38,955 bases of DNA from a virus (lineage: Duplodnaviria > Heunggongvirae > Uroviricota > Caudoviricetes). The first letter of the stretch is position 1; the number at the start of each line of letters is the position of its first letter. The position numbers were made by a program, and so were the translations under genes. Positions 551-24,620 of the stretch are shown one piece after another. Location: IMG/VR virus record IMGVR_UViG_2939127364_000004. One strand, written 5' to 3'. The notes beneath the pieces are model-generated. The model ran no database searches. It saw only the letters and a program-made list of their open reading frames with translations, and was not told the DNA's origin.

Positions 551-1081
551 ATGTCTCAAATTTTTGCTTACTGTCGGATATCAACGCTGGATCAGACCAC
601 CGAAAATCAACGCCGGGAAATCGAAAGTGCAGGTTTTAAAATCAAACCTCAGCAAATAATCGAAGAACACATTAGTGGCTCAGCAGCAACCAGTGAGCGT
701 CCTGGTTTTAACCGGTTGCTTGCTCGCCTGAAATGTGGTGATCAATTGATTGTGACAAAACTGGATCGCCTTGGTTGTAATGCAATGGATATCAGGAAAA
801 CAGTGGAACAACTGACCGAAACAGGTATCAGAGTGCATTGCTTAGCATTGGGGGGCATTGACCTGACCAGTCCAACAGGAAAAATGATGATGCAAGTAAT
901 TTCAGCAGTCGCTGAATTTGAACGAGACCTTTTACTTGAACGCACTCATTCCGGGATAGTAAGAGCCCGCGGCGCAGGGAAACGTTTTGGTCGACCACCT
1001 GTGTTAAATGAAGAACAGAAACAGGTGGTATTCGAACGAATTAAGGAAGGTGCGAATAAGTACCCTCCGCAACGAAAATGA
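551..1081 (+). CDS. pinR: Serine DNA invertase (Pin/Gin/Hin family), C-terminally truncated: HTH DNA-binding domain replaced by IS5-IR-derived codons
   Basis: N-terminal resolvase catalytic domain ([11 protein letters not shown] ... KLDRLGCN ... [21 protein letters not shown]); reading frame runs into GGAAGGTGCGAATAAG at 1045 and stops at 1079-1081, about 20 aa short of full-length PinR/PinQ as recalled. Confidence 0.75.
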
Positions 1082-1153
1082 AACTTTTAGTCAATTAAAT
1101 TCAATCACTTACATAGGCGTTTTTTTGCGTTTGGTGACTTATTCGCACCTTCC
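1045..1153. mobile_element. IS5 terminal-inverted-repeat remnant: two 16-bp IS5 IRs in inverted orientation around a 77-bp non-IS5 spacer, no target-site duplication
   Basis: GGAAGGTGCGAATAAG at 1045-1060 and its exact reverse complement CTTATTCGCACCTTCC at 1138-1153; identical to the IR at the right end of the intact IS5 at 17503-17518; flanks TTAA and CAAG differ. Confidence 0.6.
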
Positions 1154-1457
1154 CAAGAGTCTCTGCATAAGGAAGGTTATTCTGGATATAAATAACTCCG
1201 TAATTTGCAGCTTTCGAAATAACCCCGATCCCACGCTGAACCGCAATCGTACCGTTCGGATCCACGTTATCAGATATACCAAAATCGGGATGCTGTAACG
1301 ACACCAGGTTGTTATTTCTGAAACGTCCGGTATCAACCGGAGCAGCAATATCAATAGCAGTAAGAATCTGCATAGCGATGTAGCGAATTTTCAGCCCCAC
1401 ATCTTCCTCAATCATCCCGGCAAATATTGACGGTTCTATATCCCATGCCTTTGCCAT
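1101..1457 (-). pseudogene. Phage head-completion / head-tail joining protein whose last ~18 codons are encoded by the IS5-IR remnant (fusion/truncation)
   Basis: ATG at 1457 directly after stop of upstream gene; C-terminal GKVRISHQTQKNAYVSD is translated from the IR and 77-bp spacer; last gene of head operon before the deletion junction. Confidence 0.4.
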
Positions 1458-5681: not shown

Positions 5682-7068
5682 TGATTTCCATCAGCATTAC
5701 ACTCTGATTTTTTAATTCATCGATCACTTCCTCTGGACGGGAATCCTGATCGATAAATTTCAACGCCTGCAACACCCGAACCGCATCAATCTGACGTATA
5801 TTACCGCCCTGACGCAATGACTGAACAGCCAGCGCGGAGGATGAGTCAAACACCTGGGCAGATACATCCAGTTCAGTGCGCACATCCACATTGCCACCGC
5901 AACTCTCTCCGATCCATTCCGCCATTATCTGGAGAATATTATCGAGGGCATCTTCGAGGGAGTTCGCCATTGTATAAAGCGGCGAGTTTTCCTGCATTCG
6001 CTCTTCATTAGTCTGATCAACAGATTTGGTGGATGTATTTTCAGCACGCAGAAGTTTAGCGCCGGCATGACGCATCTGATTTTCCAGCTTCTCAAGTGAT
6101 GTTTCGCCAGATTCTATCGCTGCGCCACTATGTTCAACATATTCGAGGCCATTTTTTGTTCTGTCCTCAAAAATCGTAGCGGTGGATGCACCAACCGTCA
6201 GTTCTTCATTCCTGTCCAGCCCGTAGGCCACCAGCAATGGAACGCGGGCAACATGAAGAATATTGTCCTGCTCGCTCTGGCTTTGCCAGTGCTTGATATT
6301 CAGCAAGCCAAGATTAAGCAATGGCGGTGTACCACGCATAAATCCTGTTTTCTTCGTGTACAGTGTTACCAGAGGAATATCATCACGGCTGGTATTCCAT
6401 GACTCATGAAGCGTCCAGACAGATTCGCCATTAGTGCCTTCGCTACGTCGATAAATTTCAACTCGACGGGGCATAATATGGCGGATCTGCTCCACCTTCT
6501 TCTGCCCGAAATCATCACCATCAATAATGATGACCTCTTTTATACGCAAATCAGTGAGAACAACTTTCCCTTTTTCAACTTTCGATTTCCATCCAATAAC
6601 CTGGCGTGGATTCAGCATCGTAACGTACGGACGACCACCGGTCGCGTTTTCATCGGCTTTTGTACGAATCTCTTTCATATCCGTTCGTGGATAGTCCACC
6701 AGCGCATGTGCCACACCATACTGAAATGCGAGGCTGAAAAATTGCTGCGCCCACACATCCAGTCGGCTCCCCTCCATGTCGATATTTTCTGCATATTCCC
6801 TGATTTTTGCCGGCGTTTCCTCACTCAATACTGTCGGCTCTGCAAATATGCGCCCAATATTTTGCTTGATGCTTTCTTCATACACAGGAAGTAGCGTAGC
6901 CACAGACAGGCGTTTTTTATAAGCGTCTTCATCTTCGTTAGGCCATTTTGGGAGATAATTTTCCCCCTGCCTGCGCATTTCAAGCGTACCGCCCATCAGT
7001 GCGTCGTTAATATCCCACGCCTCCAGCATATCGTTATAGTCGAGGTTGGGTGTTGATATATCAGCCAT
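5662..7068 (-). CDS. Portal protein
   Basis: 468-aa ORF immediately downstream of terminase large subunit, ATG 7068; acidic C-terminus; canonical position. Confidence 0.7.
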   Translation of the reverse strand: MADISTPNLDYNDMLEAWDINDALMGGTLEMRRQGENYLPKWPNEDEDAYKKRLSVATLLPVYEESIKQNIGRIFAEPTVLSEETPAKIREYAENIDMEGSRLDVWAQQFFSLAFQYGVAHALVDYPRTDMKEIRTKADENATGGRPYVTMLNPRQVIGWKSKVEKGKVVLTDLRIKEVIIIDGDDFGQKKVEQIRHIMPRRVEIYRRSEGTNGESVWTLHESWNTSRDDIPLVTLYTKKTGFMRGTPPLLNLGLLNIKHWQSQSEQDNILHVARVPLLVAYGLDRNEELTVGASTATIFEDRTKNGLEYVEHSGAAIESGETSLEKLENQMRHAGAKLLRAENTSTKSVDQTNEERMQENSPLYTMANSLEDALDNILQIMAEWIGESCGGNVDVRTELDVSAQVFDSSSALAVQSLRQGGNIRQIDAVRVLQALKFIDQDSRPEEVIDELKNQSVMLMEINDANRE

Positions 7069-7070
7069 AA

Positions 7071-8372
7071 TTAAATCCGAAGTGATGTGACTCTTCCGGT
7101 CGGTTTGACAATAGGGAATTGCTTAACGATGAAATAACCTCCGGCATCATTCGGGTGATCATTGCCAGATTTTTTATCAGGCTCCCCCTTCTCATCCCAG
7201 ACCTGTTGCTCCAGAGATTCGGCATATAACGGGCAACGCTTCACATTAACTTTATAGCGACGCTCACCATTGGCATTGCAGAACATTGCATTCATTGAGT
7301 TAACGCGATCTTTTACTGGCGGGTTCGAGCTGTTCACCACAACGTTAAAACCAGCCTGCTTAAGCTGGGCTATATCCGTCGTACTTGCGTTACTTGATTT
7401 TCTGGAATCCCCGGAAGCATCTGGATAAATATAAATTTCCCTCACTTTCCGGTAATCATTCCCATCATACAGCCAGAAGCGTTCTTTAATGATGCGGATC
7501 ATATCCGGCGTATCGTAGGCATTGATGATTTCAGTTACCGCACATGGAAGCCCCAAACGCAGCACATGGACGATTCCCGCCATCTTTCCAACGTTAAAAT
7601 CCATCCCAATATAAATCGGCTCCCCTGGCTGCTCCACTTCTTCGCAATTATTCAGTTTCCGGTCAAACTGATGGTAAACAGTACCACTTGTCAGGTTAGT
7701 AAACTGTCCTCGAAGATAGGCTTTAATCAGCTCTGGAGGGTATGATTCAAGAAGCGAAGGAATGTAATCTGCTGGCAGGTTCTTTTCATTATCGAAAGTA
7801 GATGCCTGCACCAGACCATACAGTGAGGCCAGCTCTGTTTTTTCACGCACGGCTTTAACAAACTGCTCGTAGACAAATTTGAATCCTTCCGGCGTGGTTG
7901 TAACGTCAATACCGTTGCGAAGTCCATCAATCTTATAACGCATACGTGCAATTATCTTGCGCCACGCCGTTCTGGCTTTTTCCTTCGGCAAAATGTCCAG
8001 TTCATCCACCAACGCATTACCAATTTTGAAACCGACGATCGTTTGTGGCTTCTCCATCGATCTGCAGATAGTGGTTCCCCGATACTGGCGTCCGTAATAA
8101 AAGTGAACCTCTTTATTTCCCTCATTAATTTTTACGTTCAATCCCCAGTCAGCAGCAACTTCTTCCACTGTAGGGTAAAAAATATCGCGAATTTGGGGAT
8201 ACGTTGGCGCAAAATATCCCTGATTTATACCTGGATGCTCCCAAATCCCCTTGCATATGCCGCCACACCCAACCCATGTTTTGCCCGAGCCAAAACCAGC
8301 AATATAGGCTTTAAATTTATGGGGCATTGAAAGAAATCGCGCCTGAGGCACATTAAGCGTCGGAGAGATCAT
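7071..8372 (-). CDS. Terminase large subunit
   Basis: Walker A motif GFGSGKT near N-terminus, nuclease-like C-terminal half; AAGGAG SD gives best spacing (8 nt) to ATG at 8372; ORF track extends to 8381. Confidence 0.85.
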   Translation of the reverse strand: MISPTLNVPQARFLSMPHKFKAYIAGFGSGKTWVGCGGICKGIWEHPGINQGYFAPTYPQIRDIFYPTVEEVAADWGLNVKINEGNKEVHFYYGRQYRGTTICRSMEKPQTIVGFKIGNALVDELDILPKEKARTAWRKIIARMRYKIDGLRNGIDVTTTPEGFKFVYEQFVKAVREKTELASLYGLVQASTFDNEKNLPADYIPSLLESYPPELIKAYLRGQFTNLTSGTVYHQFDRKLNNCEEVEQPGEPIYIGMDFNVGKMAGIVHVLRLGLPCAVTEIINAYDTPDMIRIIKERFWLYDGNDYRKVREIYIYPDASGDSRKSSNASTTDIAQLKQAGFNVVVNSSNPPVKDRVNSMNAMFCNANGERRYKVNVKRCPLYAESLEQQVWDEKGEPDKKSGNDHPNDAGGYFIVKQFPIVKPTGRVTSLRI

Positions 8373-9447
8373 CTTCATCACTCCTTACTCTGGCATCAAC
8401 CACATTAATATTGATCGCCACAGGCTGGGGATGTTCATTATCTTCCACCGTTTCGATCTCTTTGCGCAGCTTCTGGTTTTCCATTCTGCGCCGTTCAATT
8501 TCCAGTTCCTGTAGCCGTTTATCTGCACATAAAGCCCCGCCAGCAGAAAACAAACGCAACAATTCACGCCGGGCGGCAGCCTTATCCTCCAGCAGGATCT
8601 CAACGCCGAATTTTCCGAATTTTGCCCCTGCATATAATTGCCGCGCATCCCCATCAAGCAGAGTGGTATCAGCCATATAAAGCTGTCCCGTTCCCTCACC
8701 GCAGCACTTCGGGCAGTCCGGATTGGGTATGGCGTTATCAACAAAGCCGAGGCCTCCATATTCCGGTTCGGGTTTGCCATCTCTGGAAGCCTGCGCCGCT
8801 GCCTTGTCGAATTCTGCTATATCGCGCCACTGGTAGAGATGATTCTCGCCCCAGCAATAACGGCAGTTAACACGGCGAAATTGTGCAAGCTGATTGGGGT
8901 CGGCCAGGACAATAGCCATCAACTGACTCACTAGTAAATCCAGGTCTGCGGTATAGCGTTTCTGGTACTGATTGCGGAAGTAGCTGATAGCGCGAAAAAC
9001 CCTGGCATTTCTAAGCATACGACTGGCGTTGCTGTTAGCTGTCGCACCTTGCCCCTCATAACCGGCTAGTCGGTACGCCTCTGTCGGCTTTTTACCCTGA
9101 GCAACAAGCATCGCAAACTTAGCCTGCTGGTCAGAAATGCCGAATTCATCGGGACAGAACGAAAATTCCTCCGCGTCGCCCTCATTCAGGCCCGCATCGA
9201 ATACTGGCTTTTTTTCCTGAGATTTTTCGTTCCGCTTTTGTGCAGTCTGCGCAGATTTTTTCTGCGCACTTTTTTGCGCAGTTTTGCACATTTCTGTCTG
9301 CGCATTTTTCGGAGTTTTTTTGATGTAACGACGGGCTGTTGCGTAATTCAGTCCCCTTGCTTCACACCATGCCACCGGAGATATACCGGAGCGGGTGTAT
9401 TCAGCAATATACTCCTGCTGCAACGCCCCCCAGTCCGGTCTGCTCAT
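8353..9447 (-). CDS. Terminase small subunit with long C-terminal extension carrying a Cys cluster
   Basis: N-terminus LQQEYIAEYTRSGISPVAWCEARGLNYATARRY matches TerS HTH pattern; 364 aa is about twice typical TerS length; C-terminal CRYCW ... CPKCCGEG. Confidence 0.6.
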   Translation of the reverse strand: MSRPDWGALQQEYIAEYTRSGISPVAWCEARGLNYATARRYIKKTPKNAQTEMCKTAQKSAQKKSAQTAQKRNEKSQEKKPVFDAGLNEGDAEEFSFCPDEFGISDQQAKFAMLVAQGKKPTEAYRLAGYEGQGATANSNASRMLRNARVFRAISYFRNQYQKRYTADLDLLVSQLMAIVLADPNQLAQFRRVNCRYCWGENHLYQWRDIAEFDKAAAQASRDGKPEPEYGGLGFVDNAIPNPDCPKCCGEGTGQLYMADTTLLDGDARQLYAGAKFGKFGVEILLEDKAAARRELLRLFSAGGALCADKRLQELEIERRRMENQKLRKEIETVEDNEHPQPVAININVVDARVRSDEDDLSDA

Positions 9448-13086: not shown

Positions 13087-13551
13087 TTACTTTAAACACT
13101 GCTCGGTTATGTATTGCTGAGCACCTTCAAGTTGGGCCTGCATCATTACCAGTCGTTCCCGGAGGGTGAAATAATCCCGTTCAGCGGTGTCTGCCAGTCG
13201 GGGGGAGGCTGCATTATCCACGCCGGAGGCGGTGGTGGCTTCACGCACTGACTGACAGACTGCTTTGATGTGCAACCGACGACGACCAGCGGCAACATCA
13301 TCACGCAGAACATCATTTTCAGCTTTCGCATCAGCTAACTCCTTCGTGTATTTTGCATCGAGCGCAGCAACATCACGCTGACGCATCTGCATGTCAGTAA
13401 TTGCCGCGTTCGCCAGCTTCAGTTCTCTGGCATTTTTGTCGCGCTGTTCTTTGTAGGCGATGGCGTTATCACGGTAATGATTAACACCCCATGACAGGCA
13501 GACGACGATGCAGATAACCAGAGCGGAGATAATCGCGGTTACTCTGTTCAT
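13087..13551 (-). CDS. Spanin inner-membrane subunit Rz
   Basis: N-terminal TM helix then coiled-coil; ATG 13551 overlaps endolysin stop (ATGA). Confidence 0.8.
13146..13331 (-). CDS. Spanin outer-membrane lipoprotein Rz1, embedded in Rz in +1 frame
   Basis: 61-aa ORF inside Rz; lipoprotein signal with lipobox VVGC; proline-rich mature part ([15 protein letters not shown]). Confidence 0.75.
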
Positions 13552-14045
13552 TGCTGACCCCACAAACAGATTTCACGCTCAATCTCACGACGAGTCATGA
13601 GACCTTTCCATTGCTTACCGCCAGCATATGTCCAGCGACGTAGCTGATCACATGCGCCTTTGATATCGCCCTGGTTTATTTTGCGAAGAAGCGTCGATGT
13701 TCTGAAATTGCCAGCACCCACGTTGTAAACGAATGAGTAAAGAGCGCCGCGCGTTGTTTCCGGTATATCGACTTTGATGTACGGGTTAATTTGTCTGGCG
13801 ACCGTGGCAAGGTCTTTATTCAGGAGGGCTTTGCATTCTGCTTTGGTATACGTTTTACCGAGCATGATGTCTTTTCCTGTATGCCCGTGACATACAGTCC
13901 ATACACCAACAATATCTTTGTATGGTATGTAGCTGACACCTTCCAGACCATCGTTACCACTTGGGCCAGTGATTAACACTGATGCTATAGCAATTGCTCC
14001 GCCACCAATAGCAGCAGCAACGACTTTTCGTAATGATGGAGGCAT
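13548..14045 (-). CDS. SAR endolysin (phage 21 R-type lysozyme with signal-arrest-release N-terminal domain)
   Basis: [39 protein letters not shown]... near-identical to recalled phage 21 R; start overlaps holin stop (TAATG). Confidence 0.9.
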
Positions 14046-14260
14046 TATTCACCTCTCGCAGCCTTGCGCTTATCTTCTTTAATCTTGAAATAAAGGTTTG
14101 TCAGGTACGTCAGCAGGCCAAATACCAGACTACCCAGCACACCGATTGCAGCCCACTGTGACGGAGTTACTCTATCGAGCAACTGTAAAAACCAGTAGCC
14201 AGCACTGCCTGCGGAGGTGCCGTAGGCAATGCCTGTTGAAATTTTGTCCATGGATTTCAT
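14045..14260 (-). CDS. Class II pinholin S21 with dual-start motif (MKSMDK)
   Basis: [26 protein letters not shown]... two TM domains; GGAGGT SD; near-identical to recalled phage 21 S. Confidence 0.9.
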
Positions 14261-14311
14261 AGCCTCACCTCCGCACGGAACGGATGGCATAGTTATTATG
14301 TGGATTCGCCC

Positions 14312-15217
14312 CTATATTTCCAGACACCTGTTATCACTTAACCCATTACTGGCCCGCTGCCGCAGATATTCCCGTGGCGAGCGATAACCCAGCGCACTAT
14401 GCGGATGCCATTCGTTATAATGCTCGAACGCCTCTGCAAGGTTCTTTGCTGCCGTTAACCCGTCTGGTTTGGGCATGATACTTATGTAGTCACGCTTTAT
14501 CGTTTTCACGAAGCTCTCTGCTATTCCGTTACTCTCCGGACTCCGCACCGCCGTGTTCTTCGGTTCAAGTCCCAACATCCTGGCGAACTGACGTGTTTCA
14601 TTCGCCCGGTAGCATGAACCATTATCCGTCAGCCACTCCACTGGAGACGCCGGAAGCTCGCTGCCAAAGCGGCGTTCCACTGCTCCCAGCATGACGTCCT
14701 GTACTGTTTCACTGTCGAAACCCCCCGTTGTGACCGCCCAGTGCAGTGCCTCACGGTCACAGCAGTCCAGCGCGAACGTGACCCGCAGTTTTTCTCCGTT
14801 ATCACAGCGGAACTCAAACCCGTCAGAGCACCATCGCTGATTACTTTCTTTCACAGCCACTCTGCCGGTATGTGCCCGTTTCGATGGCGGTACAGCGGGT
14901 TTTCGCTCAAGCAACAGCGCATTCTGGCGCATGATCCGGTAAACACGTTTGGCATTGATCGCAGGCATACCATCAAGTTCCGTCTGTCTGCGAAGCAGCG
15001 CCCATACCCGACGATAACCATATGTGGGCAGCTCTCCGATAACATGGTGTATACGGAGAAGCACATCCGTATCATCAGTGTGACGACTGCGGCGGCCATC
15101 CATCCAGTCATCGGTTCGTCTGAGAATGACGTGCAACTGCGCACGCGACACCCGGAGACAACGGCTGACTAAGCTTACTCCCCATCCCCGGGCAATAAGG
15201 GCGCGTGCGCTATCCAC
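14312..15217 (-). CDS. insD: IS2 transposase OrfB (InsD)
   Basis: 301-aa [33 protein letters not shown]..., DDE integrase-type catalytic region. Confidence 0.9.
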
Positions 15218-15540
15218 TTTTTTGCCCGTCCATATTCAACGGCTTCTTTGAGGAGTTCATTTTCCATCGTTTTCTTGCCGAGCAGGCGCTGGAGTTCTTT
15301 AATCTGCTTCATGGCGGCAGCAAGTTCAGAGGCAGGAACAACCTGTTCTCCGGCGGCGACAGCAGTAAGACTTCCTTCCTGATATTGCTTACGCCAGAGA
15401 AATAACTGGCTGGCTGCTACACCATGTTGCCGGGCAACGAGGGAGACCGTCATCCCCGGTTCAAAGCTCTGCTGAACAATTGCGATCTTTTCCTGTGTGG
15501 TACGCCGTCTGCGTTTCTCCGGCCCTAAGACATCAATCAT
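15175..15540 (-). CDS. insC: IS2 OrfA (InsC) HTH protein
   Basis: 121 aa from ATG 15540, [41 protein letters not shown]... Confidence 0.9.
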
Positions 15541-15694
15541 CTGTTCTCCAATGACTAGTCTAAAAACTAGTATTAAGACTATCACTTATTTAAGTGATAC
15601 TGGTTGTCTGGAGATTCAGGGGGCCAGTCTATTATGTGTAGGCTTTCAGACACATCAATCAGAGCCTTAATTGATATATATGCTGGAGACGATG

Positions 15695-15721
15695 CAATAT
15701 AAAAAGCTCGCCGTAGCGAGC
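15695..15721 (-). terminator. Intrinsic terminator downstream of lipoprotein gene 1
   Basis: Minus strand AGCTCGC-tacg-GCGAGCT hairpin followed by TTTTTATATTG. Confidence 0.5.
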
Positions 15722-15847
15722 TAATAAAATGTATTTCTCTGATATTATGTTTATTTGTATTAGCTCAGACTTGACATCACAGGTTTCGTATATAGAACAT
15801 CATCAAATCTGTCAGTTTGCTATGAATGAGATATAGTAATTGAAGAG

Positions 15848-16323: not shown

Positions 16324-17518
<1,195 letters not shown>

Positions 17519-18021: not shown

Positions 18022-18610
18022 TTTTCCTCACATATGTCATATAGTAAAGGATTATATATACCGTTGTTTTGGACGCTCAAACAGCGAATCAGATCAAATA
18101 AAACGCACATTTGTTAACATTTACACAAAGTCTGCGTGGGATATTCTGAAAGAATATCCATAATGTGGAGAGAATCTATTGAAGTGCATGGTGCCGGGTG
18201 CCTCCCGGTGAACAAAATGTTCGTGATACCTGTCGGCGACAGAAAAGGTTAATGGTATCACCCCACCGCACAGGGGGATTCACCATGCAGGAGTTTTCTT
18301 AGCAAACTCACTGCGCGCCCGGCAACTCCCAACCACATAAAATGCGGAGTTTGTGGTATTTATGCATATAACTCGCAGGAATTATCTTAAAAAACTGATG
18401 TCGATCCGGATTAAAAAGAAGCAGGTCATCATCAGATGACTGGAAAAAAGGAAAACAAAAAATACTCATCATACAGTTTTGATTGCAGGGATGAGCCTGC
18501 TATGCACAATATGCAGAATATAAGCAAGATAAAAATATGCAGGCATATTATTTCGGATTTTGTTATTAACACAACCTTTTTAATAATCATTTGGCATACA
18601 ATAAACCAGC

Positions 18611-18957: not shown

Positions 18958-18986
18958 TAAAAAAACCGCATTAAGCGGTTTTTTTA
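18958..18986. terminator. Bidirectional intrinsic terminator ~80 bp downstream of Q stop (candidate tR' of the late promoter)
   Basis: AAAAAAACCGC-attaa-GCGGTTTTTTT: hairpin flanked by A7 and T7. Confidence 0.6.
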
Positions 18987-19065: not shown

Positions 19066-19608
19066 TCAAGCCATTTTCTCAGCAAATGATTCACGCATGG
19101 GAATATATAGGGCATACTCAGCAACAGCTAACCAATTAGCAATCCGTTTTTCGCATGTGCTAAAACACCACTCTGGGTGTGCATCATTTAGCAATTCAGC
19201 CATTTTGCGCTTAGTCATCCCCCGCCCTTCATAGCGTTGCCGGAGAATGCAAATCAATCCTGGATGCTCTGCCAGCACCTCACTTATGACTCGATCAATA
19301 CATAACGCCTCTGCATCAGTACAATGCGCCAGCCAGCTCTTTTGCTTGCCGTTGATCATCTCTCGCAAAAACGCTTCCAGCTCAGCTTTCTCTATTCCCG
19401 CTTTTTTCATTCTGCGCAGGGCTTCATTAATGGCTGTTTTCGTCAGTTTTTTGGATGCCAACAACTGATTGAACATATTCCCTGACCTGTCACCGCCAAT
19501 ATACGACCAGCGCCCCCACATACGTAGTTTTCCCTGAATCCAGACACTTTCCAGCGTGGTGAGGCGAAGGTGTTCTCCGCTTTTTCCTGTATTCGTTGGG
19601 TAAATCAT
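19066..19608 (-). CDS. Putative late-gene antiterminator Q-like protein (180 aa)
   Basis: Position between Nin-type genes and late terminator/lysis cassette; ATGA overlap with upstream gene; assignment by synteny, weak sequence recollection. Confidence 0.5.
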   Translation of the reverse strand: MIYPTNTGKSGEHLRLTTLESVWIQGKLRMWGRWSYIGGDRSGNMFNQLLASKKLTKTAINEALRRMKKAGIEKAELEAFLREMINGKQKSWLAHCTDAEALCIDRVISEVLAEHPGLICILRQRYEGRGMTKRKMAELLNDAHPEWCFSTCEKRIANWLAVAEYALYIPMRESFAEKMA

Positions 19609-21838: not shown

Positions 21839-23038
21839 ATGCCATTTGTTATTTATGTGTTTACTATCAGTGCCTTTGCGCTCGGACTCGCGGAATTTGT
21901 CCCCATTGGGCTGACAGACGTTATGGCTCAGGGGTTGTGTGTGGGTGTGGAGCAGACCGGGGCAGCGGTTACAACCTATGCACTGGGGGCAACGTTCGCG
22001 GCACCCGTACTGTCTGCGCTGACAGCAAGCTGGAGCCGGAAAAATGTAATGCTTACAACTGCCGTTGTGTTTACTGCCGGTAGTCTGGCGGCCGCGTTTG
22101 CAGCCACATTACCTCAGCTCCTGTTAGCGCGGTTCATTGCTGGTCTGGGACACGGCCTGTTTCTGGCTGCGGCATCCAGTACCGCAGCTCGTCTTGCTGG
22201 ACCGGGTAAAGCAGGCAGAGCGGTGGCTGTGGTATTTGGTGGCTTTACTCTGGCGATGGCAATCGGCGTACCGCTGAGTACATGGTTGGGGGGGGTGGTC
22301 TCATGGCGTCCAGTTCTCGGCGCTATTGCCGCTTTTGGCGCGTTCGGATTCCTTGGACTGTTGTTCGGTATGAAAGATCCCGTACGCAGCGTGCCCGGTG
22401 AACATAGTGACTCAGCAATGCAGAATATCGGCATGCTGTTTAACCGTAAGTTGCTGGCCGGCGCGCTGGTTACGGTGCTGGCGTATGCAGGCTCGTTTAC
22501 GGATTACACCTTTATCGCACCTATTCTGACGCAGGTGACAGGGGTTACCGGAGCAACGGTGAGTCTGTTTATGCTGGTTTACGGTATTACAGCTGCGGTA
22601 GGTAATATTCTTGGTGGGAAACTTACCGACAGCATGGGGGTTAATCGTGCCAATATACTCATCATTAGCGGCATTGTTGTTGTCGTGCTTGGTATGTGGC
22701 TGCTGTCATCCTCACCGGTGAGCATGGGCATTCTGGTTGCGCTGCTGGGTATGGTGACATTTGCCGCAGTGCCGGCACTGCAGGCCCGTCTGATTGGTGT
22801 CGCTGAGCAACATGCTCCTCATGCGCATGGTGTTGCTGCCGGCCTGAATATTGCGGGCTTCAACTCAGGTATAGCGCTGGGATCAGTACTGGGCAGCATT
22901 ACTATAAGCCACGCCGGTATCGTGTATACCGGTATCAGCGGTGCGATTGTTTCTCTGCTCGGCCTGCTGTTGCTGCTTGCACAAATCCGTCGCAGCCACA
23001 GTCGTAAATTTCAACAGGTTAAAATCGTAGGCCAGTAA
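21839..23038 (+). CDS. MFS transporter (12-TM, 399 aa)
   Basis: AGGAG SD; hydrophobic 12-helix pattern, Gly/Ala-rich, central cytoplasmic loop. Confidence 0.8.
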   Translation: MPFVIYVFTISAFALGLAEFVPIGLTDVMAQGLCVGVEQTGAAVTTYALGATFAAPVLSALTASWSRKNVMLTTAVVFTAGSLAAAFAATLPQLLLARFIAGLGHGLFLAAASSTAARLAGPGKAGRAVAVVFGGFTLAMAIGVPLSTWLGGVVSWRPVLGAIAAFGAFGFLGLLFGMKDPVRSVPGEHSDSAMQNIGMLFNRKLLAGALVTVLAYAGSFTDYTFIAPILTQVTGVTGATVSLFMLVYGITAAVGNILGGKLTDSMGVNRANILIISGIVVVVLGMWLLSSSPVSMGILVALLGMVTFAAVPALQARLIGVAEQHAPHAHGVAAGLNIAGFNSGIALGSVLGSITISHAGIVYTGISGAIVSLLGLLLLLAQIRRSHSRKFQQVKIVGQ

Positions 23039-23049
23039 AGGGAGGTTAT

Positions 23050-23742
23050 ATGCTTACCCGTGAAAATATGCTTAATGGCACATTTGTCAGGGTGCATGAA
23101 GCGCTGCTCCCGGCGAATATGCTCTGGGACGCTGAAAAAATACGCGCATCAATGAACTCTACTCTGGAGGAGCGCCCGACGGGTGCTCCTGTCTGGATAT
23201 TTGCCTACGGGTCATTGATGTGGAATCCCGTGCTGGCGATTGAAGAAATGCAACGGGCCCGTCTGAAAGGATGGCAGCGCAGTTTCTGCATTCGTTTGAT
23301 ATCCGGACGAGCGACTCCTGATGTCCCCGGCAGGATGTTATCGCTCGACGAAGGTGGAATTACCGAAGGTATTGCGTTCAGACTGCCGGAATCGACTCTT
23401 ATTAATGAGCTGGAAATTGTCTGGACGCGCGAGATGATAACCGGTCTTTACCGTCCGGTCTGGGCAGACGTTTCGCTAGGAAACGGTGAGGAAATTCAGG
23501 CGCTGGCTTTCGTATCAGACAGACTGCATCCGCATTATGAACAGGACAATCTTACAGCGACCGTAGCGTTGAGCATCGCATCTGCCCGTGGAGACATTGG
23601 CACGAATGCAGATTATGTATGGAAACTGCAGGCCACTCTGGGTGCGTTGGGAATACGGGATGATTACGTGAGTGAACTGGCCCTTGCTCTGCATGAGGCT
23701 CCCTGTAACGATAAACTTCATCAGCGAGGCGCTTCACTATGA
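23050..23742 (+). CDS. ChaC-family gamma-glutamylcyclotransferase-like protein
   Basis: GGAGG SD; WIFAYGSLMWNP (YGSL motif) and overall similarity to ChaC; 230 aa. Confidence 0.7.
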   Translation: MLTRENMLNGTFVRVHEALLPANMLWDAEKIRASMNSTLEERPTGAPVWIFAYGSLMWNPVLAIEEMQRARLKGWQRSFCIRLISGRATPDVPGRMLSLDEGGITEGIAFRLPESTLINELEIVWTREMITGLYRPVWADVSLGNGEEIQALAFVSDRLHPHYEQDNLTATVALSIASARGDIGTNADYVWKLQATLGALGIRDDYVSELALALHEAPCNDKLHQRGASL

Positions 23743-24620
23743 GCCATCTGAGCCATCTGCGAACGTTTCTTGAGGCCTATCGCTCTGGCTCCTTTTCAAA
23801 GGCGGCAGAACTACTGGGCATCACTCAGCCCGCGGCGTCACAGCATATCCAGTCTCTTGAGACTCTGGTTGGTAAGCGTCTGTTTATCAGGCAGGCCAGA
23901 GGCGTGACGGCAACCGAAGCTGCGGATGAGCTTGCCCGCTCAGTTTCACCCTTCATTGATGGTCTGGAAGAAAAGCTGTCCTCTTTCCGGTCAGGCTCTG
24001 TACGCGGGGGAACAATTAATCTGGCAGGACCGCCAGATTTTATTCATTCCCGGCTTGGGACAGTAATGGCTCCACTAATGAAGGAGGGGTATCGCCTACG
24101 CTTTCATACCGGCAATAAGCAACGTATTTATTCCCTTTTGCATGACGGGAGCGCCGATCTCGCTGTTACCGCATCTATGCCTGATGACCGTCTGTACGGC
24201 TATGCACATCTACTGACTGAACGCATGCTCCTTGTTCATGCTCCCGCCATGTCAGAGATCATCGGATCAGAACCTGGTGCTGAAACGCTTGCCTCATTAC
24301 CGCTGATTGCTTATGACGAAGAGTTGCCACTGATTAGAGCGCTCTGGGCCTCCATGTTTCAGAGAGCCCCTGAGATGCAGGCTACATTCACCATTCCGGA
24401 TTTACGTATTATCCGCGACTTGGTCTGTGACGGCCACGGGTGGACAGTGCTGCCGGATTATCACTGTGACAATGACCTGAAAAGTGGTCGCCTGATTTCA
24501 GTGACACCTGCAGACCTCGCTCCGACTAATCATCTTTATCTGGTCTGGAACAAAAGGACGGCTAATAACAGCCGAACCGCCTATGTTCGGGATTACATTC
24601 TTAAAACGTTTCCGCGTTGA
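23739..24620 (+). CDS. LysR-type transcriptional regulator
   Basis: N-terminal HTH LRTFLEAYRSGSFSKAAELLGITQPAASQHIQSLE; start overlaps ChaC stop (ATGA). Confidence 0.85.
   Translation: MSHLSHLRTFLEAYRSGSFSKAAELLGITQPAASQHIQSLETLVGKRLFIRQARGVTATEAADELARSVSPFIDGLEEKLSSFRSGSVRGGTINLAGPPDFIHSRLGTVMAPLMKEGYRLRFHTGNKQRIYSLLHDGSADLAVTASMPDDRLYGYAHLLTERMLLVHAPAMSEIIGSEPGAETLASLPLIAYDEELPLIRALWASMFQRAPEMQATFTIPDLRIIRDLVCDGHGWTVLPDYHCDNDLKSGRLISVTPADLAPTNHLYLVWNKRTANNSRTAYVRDYILKTFPR

Follow-up and report, generated by a model that had tools for sequence, protein, structure and literature searches.

We analysed a 38,955-nucleotide stretch of Caudoviricetes DNA (IMG/VR record IMGVR_UViG_2939127364_000004), referred to below as the window, in the region where an insertion sequence (IS) lies directly before the lysis genes of a prophage. 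A complete IS2-type element of the IS3 family, exactly 1331 bp long, occupies positions 14301–15631 on the minus strand. The holin start (MKSMDK) is at position 14260, and exactly 40 bp (14261–14300) separate it from the end of the element. In the order of transcription, the late region consists of a Q-like gene, a hairpin, a match to STnc100, a lipoprotein gene with a TolA C-terminal domain (TolA-C), IS5, a second TolA-C gene, a terminator, IS2, and the holin; trkG comes after the lysis genes. The initial annotation, which was made from the same DNA, had placed a complete IS2 with both open reading frames (ORFs) intact and a perfect TTATG duplication 40 bp upstream of the pinholin start, in the interval from the late leader to the P21-type holin and co-oriented with the lysis genes. 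This description was borne out in every part: the ends are base-exact, the frames are open, TTATG is single in the empty allele, the gap spans 14261–14300, and the element and the lysis genes are all on the minus strand. The parts of the element are as follows.

14301–15631, minus strand: IS2-type insertion sequence, a rare isoform, delimited by full-length alignment, with its left end (IRL) at 15631 and its right end (IRR) at 14301
14296–14300, no strand: holin-proximal TTATG target duplication, the TTATG being single in the empty site
15632–15636, no strand: holin-distal TTATG target duplication, which pairs with the holin-proximal TTATG
14301–14341, minus strand: IRR, 41 bp, with the tip TGGATTCGCCCC, which reads TGGATTTGCCCC in all other sampled copies
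15590–15631, minus strand: IRL, 42 bp, bearing the weak promoter of IS2 itself (alignment and PMC3299598)
15175–15540, minus strand: orfA, InsC-like, 121 amino acids, helix-turn-helix (Pfam HTH_Tnp_1, E = 1.8e-19, 70.2 bits)
14312–15217, minus strand: orfB, InsD-like, 301 amino acids, DDE integrase core (Pfam rve, E = 4.4e-20, 72.3 bits; also rve_3 and HTH_21)
15217–15223 (IS nucleotides 409–415), minus strand: A AAA AAG heptamer for a −1 programmed frameshift, in the orfA/orfB overlap

The outer boundary sequences of the element are TGGATTCGCCCC at one end and GGGGCCAGTCTA at the other, and the ends match base for base with 18 other copies in the alignment. The imperfect terminal repeats of IS2 are known to be 41 and 42 bp long (PMC3299598). 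Both frames are open, overlap each other, and lie on the same strand as the lysis genes. The frameshift heptamer is in the correct phase (X XXY YYZ; phase 2 relative to orfA), and homologous IS2 copies carry the NCBI annotation "programmed frameshift". The orfB product is normally made as an OrfAB fusion. The 5-bp duplication was also found at 20 other sampled IS2 insertions. The IS2 of K-12 shares with the window copy the length of 1331 bp, the 41- and 42-bp repeats, orfA and orfB, the A6G −1 frameshift, and the 5-bp duplication. The element at 14301–15631 therefore belongs to IS2, since its length, repeats, ORFs, frameshift, duplication, and identity all fit.

In the full-length alignment, the element was 95.0–97.7% identical to 19 other copies of 1331 bp. 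Compared with the copy in strain DSM 103246 (locus coordinates 7302–8632), which represents the common IS2 and is labeled "IS3-like element IS2 family" by NCBI, it has 33 differences over 1331 positions (97.5% identity). Only 2 differences fall in the first 600 nucleotides, and 27 of the 33 are clustered at IS nucleotides 609–1051. Position 7 of the right-end tip is C in the window copy and T in all 18 other sampled copies. The window IS2 is thus a rare isoform and looks mosaic. Copies with 100% identity are limited to a few strains from pigs and poultry and to plasmids of about 113 kb that these strains carry, while copies with at least 99% identity occur in 220 records. The isoform is probably active in transposition, because identical copies occupy different, unrelated chromosomal and plasmid loci.

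Comparison with IS-free alleles was used to establish the insertion. The flanks rejoined without IS2 and one TTATG were 100% identical over 300 bp to sequences in several Escherichia coli genomes and identical over 1988 bp to the IS-free strain B19374. The rejoined IS-free sequence was covered to at least 80% in 768 genomes. The insertion and its target duplication are genuine, and a chance repeat is dismissed, because the rejoined flanks reproduce an IS-free allele that carries a single TTATG. The insertion should be recent, because its flanks are 100% identical to IS-free alleles. It should also be private to its strain, because neither the window isoform at the TTATG site nor the IS5 junction occurs in any of 5,426 complete E. 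coli genomes. The arrangement of IS2 together with IS5 was likewise found in none of these genomes, and the IS2-holin junction was not found among the GTDB species representatives. An IS2 with the orientation of the window copy occupies the TTATG site in only two genomes, DSM 103246 and MB56, where it is the copy that differs at 33 positions. Transposition took place by the usual route of the IS3 family and generated the 5-bp duplication, and we propose that it was a recent event of an active IS2 isoform in this strain.

We searched the 5,426 complete genomes for further insertions using the endolysin-holin-IS2-TolA-C segment, which contains 1.39 kb of non-IS sequence, as the query. A reversed query had the same flanks with IS2 reverse-complemented. 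An IS2-like element was found in or beside the 1.39-kb segment in 67 genomes, co-oriented in 29 and opposite in 38. The segment is carried by about 750–800 genomes, and the terminase-to-holin segment by 746; about 6–8% of the carrier genomes are occupied by IS2. On the basis of 23,412 IS2-like places in the 5,426 genomes, about 1 occupied site was expected over all carriers, versus about 50–67 seen. At the 21 loci examined (20 distinct genomes), each insertion had a 5-bp duplication, and 19 distinct targets were identified. Of these, 10 fall in the endolysin and 7 in the spacer of 251 bp that precedes the holin; the holin itself and the TolA-C gene contain 1 each. The inserted copies at these loci belong to at least 6 IS2 sequence groups. 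IS2 was also found in or adjoining the same cassette in other lambdoid prophages that have different upstream genes.

Equal-sized control segments of 1390 bp, which co-occur with the lysis segment in about 746 genomes, were queried with an IS2 placed centrally and in a single orientation. In this one orientation, no IS2 was found inside the trkG control, none inside the Q/HNH/NinB control, for which adjacent copies lay upstream of ninB, and none inside or within about 1.8 kb of the terminase/portal control. These results indicate a location that is not random: the endolysin-holin-upstream segment is a recurrent landing zone for IS2-family elements in E. coli prophages, and the window copy is best regarded as a further, comparatively harmless hit. 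In the literature that was searchable, no description of such IS2 clustering was found for the lysis genes of prophages.

Several possible regularities were examined and rejected. The first 13 related loci were all co-oriented with the lysis genes, but this apparent orientation bias was an ascertainment artefact, because the search joined aligned pieces on one strand only; the reversed search gave 38 opposite versus 29 co-oriented insertions. The 19 duplicated pentamers share no motif, in agreement with PMC5009759. AT-richness was rejected as the attractor, since trkG (34–41% GC) had 0 hits and the endolysin (46–49% GC) had many. Among 50,697 phage records, no viable phage with IS2 in the cassette was found. 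A 14-bp flank match in phage PhiR11_1 was a chance extension; the IS2 of this phage lies elsewhere and has a GTTTC duplication.

Individual loci showed additional features. The endolysin target AATTG was hit in opposite orientations in strains PK8566 and 400660 (loci L010, 472–1801, and L015, 472–1802). In PK-F-10132 (locus L020, 604–1934), an additional 8-bp repeat of the right-end tip of IS2, CAAATCCA, stands between this end and the CTGCT duplication. CE20 (locus L003, 188–2610) has lost the endolysin and Rz by deletion, together with trkG and the head genes, and a tail-fibre gene directly abuts the holin; an IS2-like element is still present upstream of the holin. IS2-like copies were also observed upstream of a NinB-like gene (DUF1367) at two distances in different strains (L027, 3051–4279; L028, 3749–4977), and this region is possibly a second landing zone at a cargo-gene boundary.

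The lysis cassette next to IS2 contains the following features.

14045–14260, minus strand: class II holin (P21 S-type pinholin), 71 amino acids, intact (Pfam Phage_holin_2_1, PF04971, E = 2.1e-35, residues 5–67)
13548–14045, minus strand: signal-anchor-release (SAR) endolysin of the R21/RrrD type, 165 amino acids, intact (Pfam Phage_lysozyme)
13087–13563, minus strand: Rz i-spanin (Pfam Phage_lysis, E = 4e-53)
13146–13331, minus strand: Rz1 o-spanin embedded in Rz, identified as an ORF; rzpD and rzoD are annotated in DSM 103246 and B19374
14267–14288, minus strand: candidate small hairpin pairing with the Shine-Dalgarno sequence of the holin, wholly inside the retained 40 bp

The holin has dual starts at Met1 and Met4 (MKSM), and the family match suggests that the 71-residue protein functions as a pinholin. 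Pinholins of the P21 type form small heptameric pinholes that depolarise the membrane. The endolysin gave full-length matches to PDB entries 4zpu (RrrD, E = 2.5e-111) and 3hde (E = 9.6e-111), and its hydrophobic, Gly/Ala-rich N-terminus fits the signal-anchor-release segment of a GH24 SAR endolysin. The holin, endolysin, Rz, and Rz1 genes are all intact, and the lysis genes are identical to those of the IS-free allele in B19374. The 40-bp leader, the ribosome-binding site of the holin, and the dual start codons are unaltered by IS2. The centroid structure of the candidate 5′ hairpin is the same with and without IS2, and its z-scores were not significant against shuffled sequence.

The initial annotation had also predicted that, unless Q-modified polymerase reads through, IS2 should be polar on the lysis genes. 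The RNA made through IS2 by late transcription is the sense strand of the transposase. A scan of the minus strand inside 14301–15631, including the 3′ end of IS2, found no terminator-like hairpin. C-rich windows (C/G ≥ 1.3), which are a crude proxy for Rho loading sites, numbered 1 of 97 on the sense strand versus 45 of 97 on the antisense strand. In the native IS-free allele, late transcripts must already cross a strong hairpin terminator at 15722–15705. Late transcripts would depend on Q antitermination anyway, because this native terminator precedes IS2. The Q-modified polymerase of lambdoid phages is expected to ignore terminators. Strong polarity of IS2 on the lysis genes is unlikely, especially for Q-modified polymerase, because the sense strand has no hairpin and almost no C-rich windows and because the native terminator is already passed; the predicted polarity is thus not supported. 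A sense strand that is G-rich, translatable, and without a hairpin terminator would make the insertion at most weakly polar. Q-modified polymerase would still reach the lysis genes, and the main effect of IS2 would be a leader that is longer by 1.3 kb.

The classic reporter of Rho-dependent polarity is galEP3 (gal3), in which, as in the window, IS2 lies between a promoter and the downstream genes. Its IS2 lies in the orientation opposite to that of the window copy. The window differs from galEP3 in that its IS2 is co-oriented, the transcribed strand is G-rich, and the incoming polymerase would be Q-modified. The Rho-dependent terminators of IS2 are known from the polar galEP3 insertion (PMC3737525). 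The window allele offers a clean natural test of whether antitermination and IS orientation decide between silencing, neutrality, and feeding of a downstream operon.

Low-level read-out from IS2 into the lysis genes had been proposed as the other possible effect. One site at the junction is relevant to this proposal.

14295–14322, minus strand: candidate promoter-like hybrid TGGAAA-16-CATAAT, 9 of 12 consensus matches

The −35 hexamer TGGAAA lies inside IRR, and the −10 hexamer CATAAT is composed of the duplicated target and one flank base, about 30 nucleotides upstream of the ribosome-binding site of the holin. The −35 hexamer is positioned as the 17-bp spacing in the IS2 junction promoter would require (PMC3299598). 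A low level of transcription that is independent of Q and begins downstream of the native terminator may arise from the −35 in IRR combined with the duplicated CATAA(T), or by read-out from the transposase promoter. Fusion promoters using the −35 of the IS2 right end are documented for ampC, acrEF, and neoR (PMC9330008). As in the window, the right end of IS2 gives the −35 and the flank gives the −10 at ampC, where improvement of the spacer from 16 to 17 bp raised the activity 20-fold (Jaurin and Normark 1983, as cited in PMC9330008). In contrast, the spacer in the window stays at 16 bp and the quality of the −35 is unchanged, so no gain is predicted. Weak read-out is therefore possible in one respect, as a promoter-like site is present at IRR and the 3′ end has no terminator, whereas the 16-bp spacer and the equally good native site described below speak against any added activity.

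Taken together, the window appears to carry a recent, private IS2 that has little polarity and is a harmless hit in a recurrent landing zone; we regard this reading as somewhat better supported than its negation. Several points weigh against it. The recurrence was counted per genome and not per independent lineage, and the examined loci were the best-scoring ones rather than a random sample. The control segments covered a single orientation, and purifying selection may be what keeps trkG free of insertions. The site and orientation shared by the window with DSM 103246 and MB56 could be due to common descent followed by gene conversion between IS copies, instead of two separate insertions. Polarity, read-through, and promoter activity are all deduced from the nucleotide sequence, the first of them in part from the C/G proxy. 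The candidate hybrid promoter has a 16-bp spacer and a −35 with 4 of 6 consensus bases, whereas a spacer of exactly 17 bp is reportedly required in the IS2 junction promoter (PMC3299598). A TTGATG-16-CATAAT of equal quality is already present at the native site, so that IS2 may change nothing, and promoter-like sites in the region numbered 12 versus 8.7 ± 3.1 in shuffled sequence, which is not significant.

The clustering itself could have arisen by selection or by a preference of IS2 for this region as a target. The neutral view that prophage DNA simply tolerates IS elements fails, because the structural genes are clean of IS2. A regional hot target for IS2 in phage P1 was reportedly described by Sengstag and Arber in 1983. 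It is said to have received many IS2 insertions, at different positions and with either orientation, over one to two kb and without a consensus, like the lysis cassette; it was reportedly shown by experiment to be target-driven, and it concerns a different phage and region from the window. A preference of IS2 for curved DNA has also been stated (PMC3299598). Should targeting be responsible, the lysis cassette would be the second mapped regional hot target for IS2; if selection is the cause, the endolysin would be the gene that bacteria most need broken when taming such prophages. The latter possibility can be put more broadly: about 20 independent hits in 1.4 kb may form an undescribed convergence point of IS2 that reflects repeated selection for disarming the SAR endolysin, with IS2 as the main tool of domestication and the window as a weak or intermediate allele. 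We offer this only tentatively and consider it more doubtful than the reading above. If it is true, the SAR endolysin would be the selected target because it can lyse cells whenever the membrane depolarises.

For the window itself, selected silencing would mean that IS2 and the upstream IS5 block or reduce late transcription into the holin and endolysin and that the non-lysing cells survive prophage induction or leaky expression of the SAR endolysin. The concentration of IS2 in the cassette and its absence inside the equal-sized neighbouring segments agree with such selection, as does the distribution of the targets (endolysin 10, upstream spacer 7, holin 1), which matches the disarming of a SAR-endolysin system. 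Loss of the pinholin alone merely delays lysis. Other IS families also strike the late region (ISKpn26 in Q, IS1A upstream of essD, and IS5 in the window), IS2 is known to bear Rho-dependent terminators (PMC3737525), and mutation-accumulation lines, in which IS2 had no favoured region or target motif (PMC5009759), argue against a purely mechanistic hot spot. However, no IS2 was found inside Q, although disruption of Q would silence lysis equally, and the two orientations are about equal (29 versus 38), including in the upstream spacer. In the window, C-rich windows are almost absent from the transcribed strand of IS2, which also lacks a hairpin terminator; Q-modified polymerase should pass terminators unhindered, and the lysis genes are intact. 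The tail genes are already lost and virion production is gone, though selection could still act against killing by lysis. The proposal of selection against lysis in the initial annotation is thus supported by the concentration of IS2 in the cassette compared with its neighbours and not by the window copy, which is weak evidence for selection in its own strain because nothing visible is inactivated. Overall, we consider selected silencing of this allele unlikely. Activation is more improbable still: an outward promoter placed past the native terminator would give constitutive, low-level, Q-independent expression of the holin, endolysin, and spanins, which might serve envelope remodelling or the release of cell contents. 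The orientation of the window copy is the one that "turns on" downstream genes. The candidate TGGAAA-16-CATAAT at 14322–14295, the junction-promoter architecture (PMC3299598), the fusion promoters at ampC, acrEF, and neoR (PMC9330008), and the lack of a terminator-like site at the 3′ end of IS2 all favour activation. Nevertheless, with a 16-bp spacer, a −35 matching at 4 of 6 positions, and a native TTGATG that is as good with the same −10, no gain is predicted; no orientation bias was seen across the genomes (29 versus 38), most of the recurrent insertions destroy the endolysin instead of lying upstream of it, and constitutive expression of a SAR endolysin is risky for the cell. The remaining explanation, that IS2 was misplaced in the assembly by collapse or mis-joining of repeated IS copies, has a negligible probability in our judgment. 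Misassembly is frequent at IS elements, and the arrangement of IS2 plus IS5 is reproduced by no complete genome in the collection; on the other side, the 5-bp duplication is a perfect copy of sequence that is single in the empty allele, both junctions are base-exact, and IS2 occupies the same site in two independent finished genomes.

The IS2 of the window, considered alone, is an ordinary IS polymorphism in a cryptic prophage; the added value lies in the population-level clustering in the P21-type cassette. A comparable case is the IS5 in nmpC of the DLP12 prophage of K-12, which, like the window IS2, lies in the moron region between Q and a P21-type lysis cassette of a cryptic prophage. The IS5 of DLP12 disrupts a porin moron far upstream, whereas the IS2 of the window lies 40 bp from the holin start and is accompanied by a second IS (IS5). 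Strains derived from K-12 show IS5, the porin, and rrrD together.

Insertions of other IS families were observed in the same prophage in other strains. In three genomes the Q (DUF1133) gene is interrupted by ISKpn26, and in B19374 this element lies between Q and tolA (locus coordinates 6466–7446). In strain 165, IS1A is located just upstream of essD (locus L024, 3632–4329). IS50R was found in trkG in another strain, and IS903B in the terminase gene of NT1F31.

The late region upstream of IS2 contains the following features.

19066–19608, minus strand: Q-like late antiterminator (DUF1133), intact (Pfam DUF1133, E = 2.4e-106)
18958–18985, minus strand: tR′-like hairpin aaaaaaaccgcttaatgcggttttttt with flanking A and T runs, read from the sequence, about 80–100 nucleotides past the Q stop codon
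15848–16243, minus strand: lipoprotein gene with a TolA C-terminal domain, a moron situated between Q and the holin (Pfam TolA, E = 1.3e-14)
15705–15722, minus strand: intrinsic-terminator-like hairpin and T-run after the TolA-C lipoprotein gene, 73 bp upstream of IS2
16324–17518, plus strand: IS5, 1195 bp, with a CTAA/CTAA duplication, opposite to late transcription

The Q-like protein matched Phage_antitermQ at the threshold level (26.7 bits, cutoff 26), and the sequence search for solved structures found no homologue. The hairpin at 18958–18985 presumably marks the end of a short late leader RNA; it was missed by the pattern scan, probably since the A and T runs were absorbed into the stem. 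An Rfam match to the small RNA STnc100 is located in the late leader, past the Q-like gene and before the first TolA-like gene (18132–18318, minus strand; 86.6 bits, gathering score 47). The TolA-C lipoprotein gene is also annotated in DSM 103246 and B19374. The hairpin at 15705–15722 has a 7-bp stem with 5 GC pairs, which is followed by TTTTATATTG. IS5 is inserted between the two TolA-C lipoprotein genes, 0.7 kb farther up than IS2, and its junction was found in 0 of the 5,426 complete E. coli genomes.

The prophage is a Rac-like lambdoid prophage of E. coli, as judged from the gene order, because trkG follows the lysis genes. It retains head, portal, terminase, replication, and immunity genes, and no tail genes were found in the window. 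A 109-bp mini-IS5 at 1045–1153 has both 16-bp terminal repeats of IS5 without the transposase. A Pin invertase ORF (551–1081, plus strand) and a Neck1/tail-completion ORF (1101–1457, minus strand) both run into it. The mini-IS5 looks like an IS5-associated deletion joint that rendered the prophage defective. Because the tail genes are absent and the mini-IS5 lies at the deletion joint, the prophage was already defective, and it carries three IS-related lesions. Non-phage cargo genes were observed between the nin region and the replication genes (21839–24620, plus strand), and their homologues in DSM 103246 carry the annotations MFS transporter and gamma-glutamylcyclotransferase.

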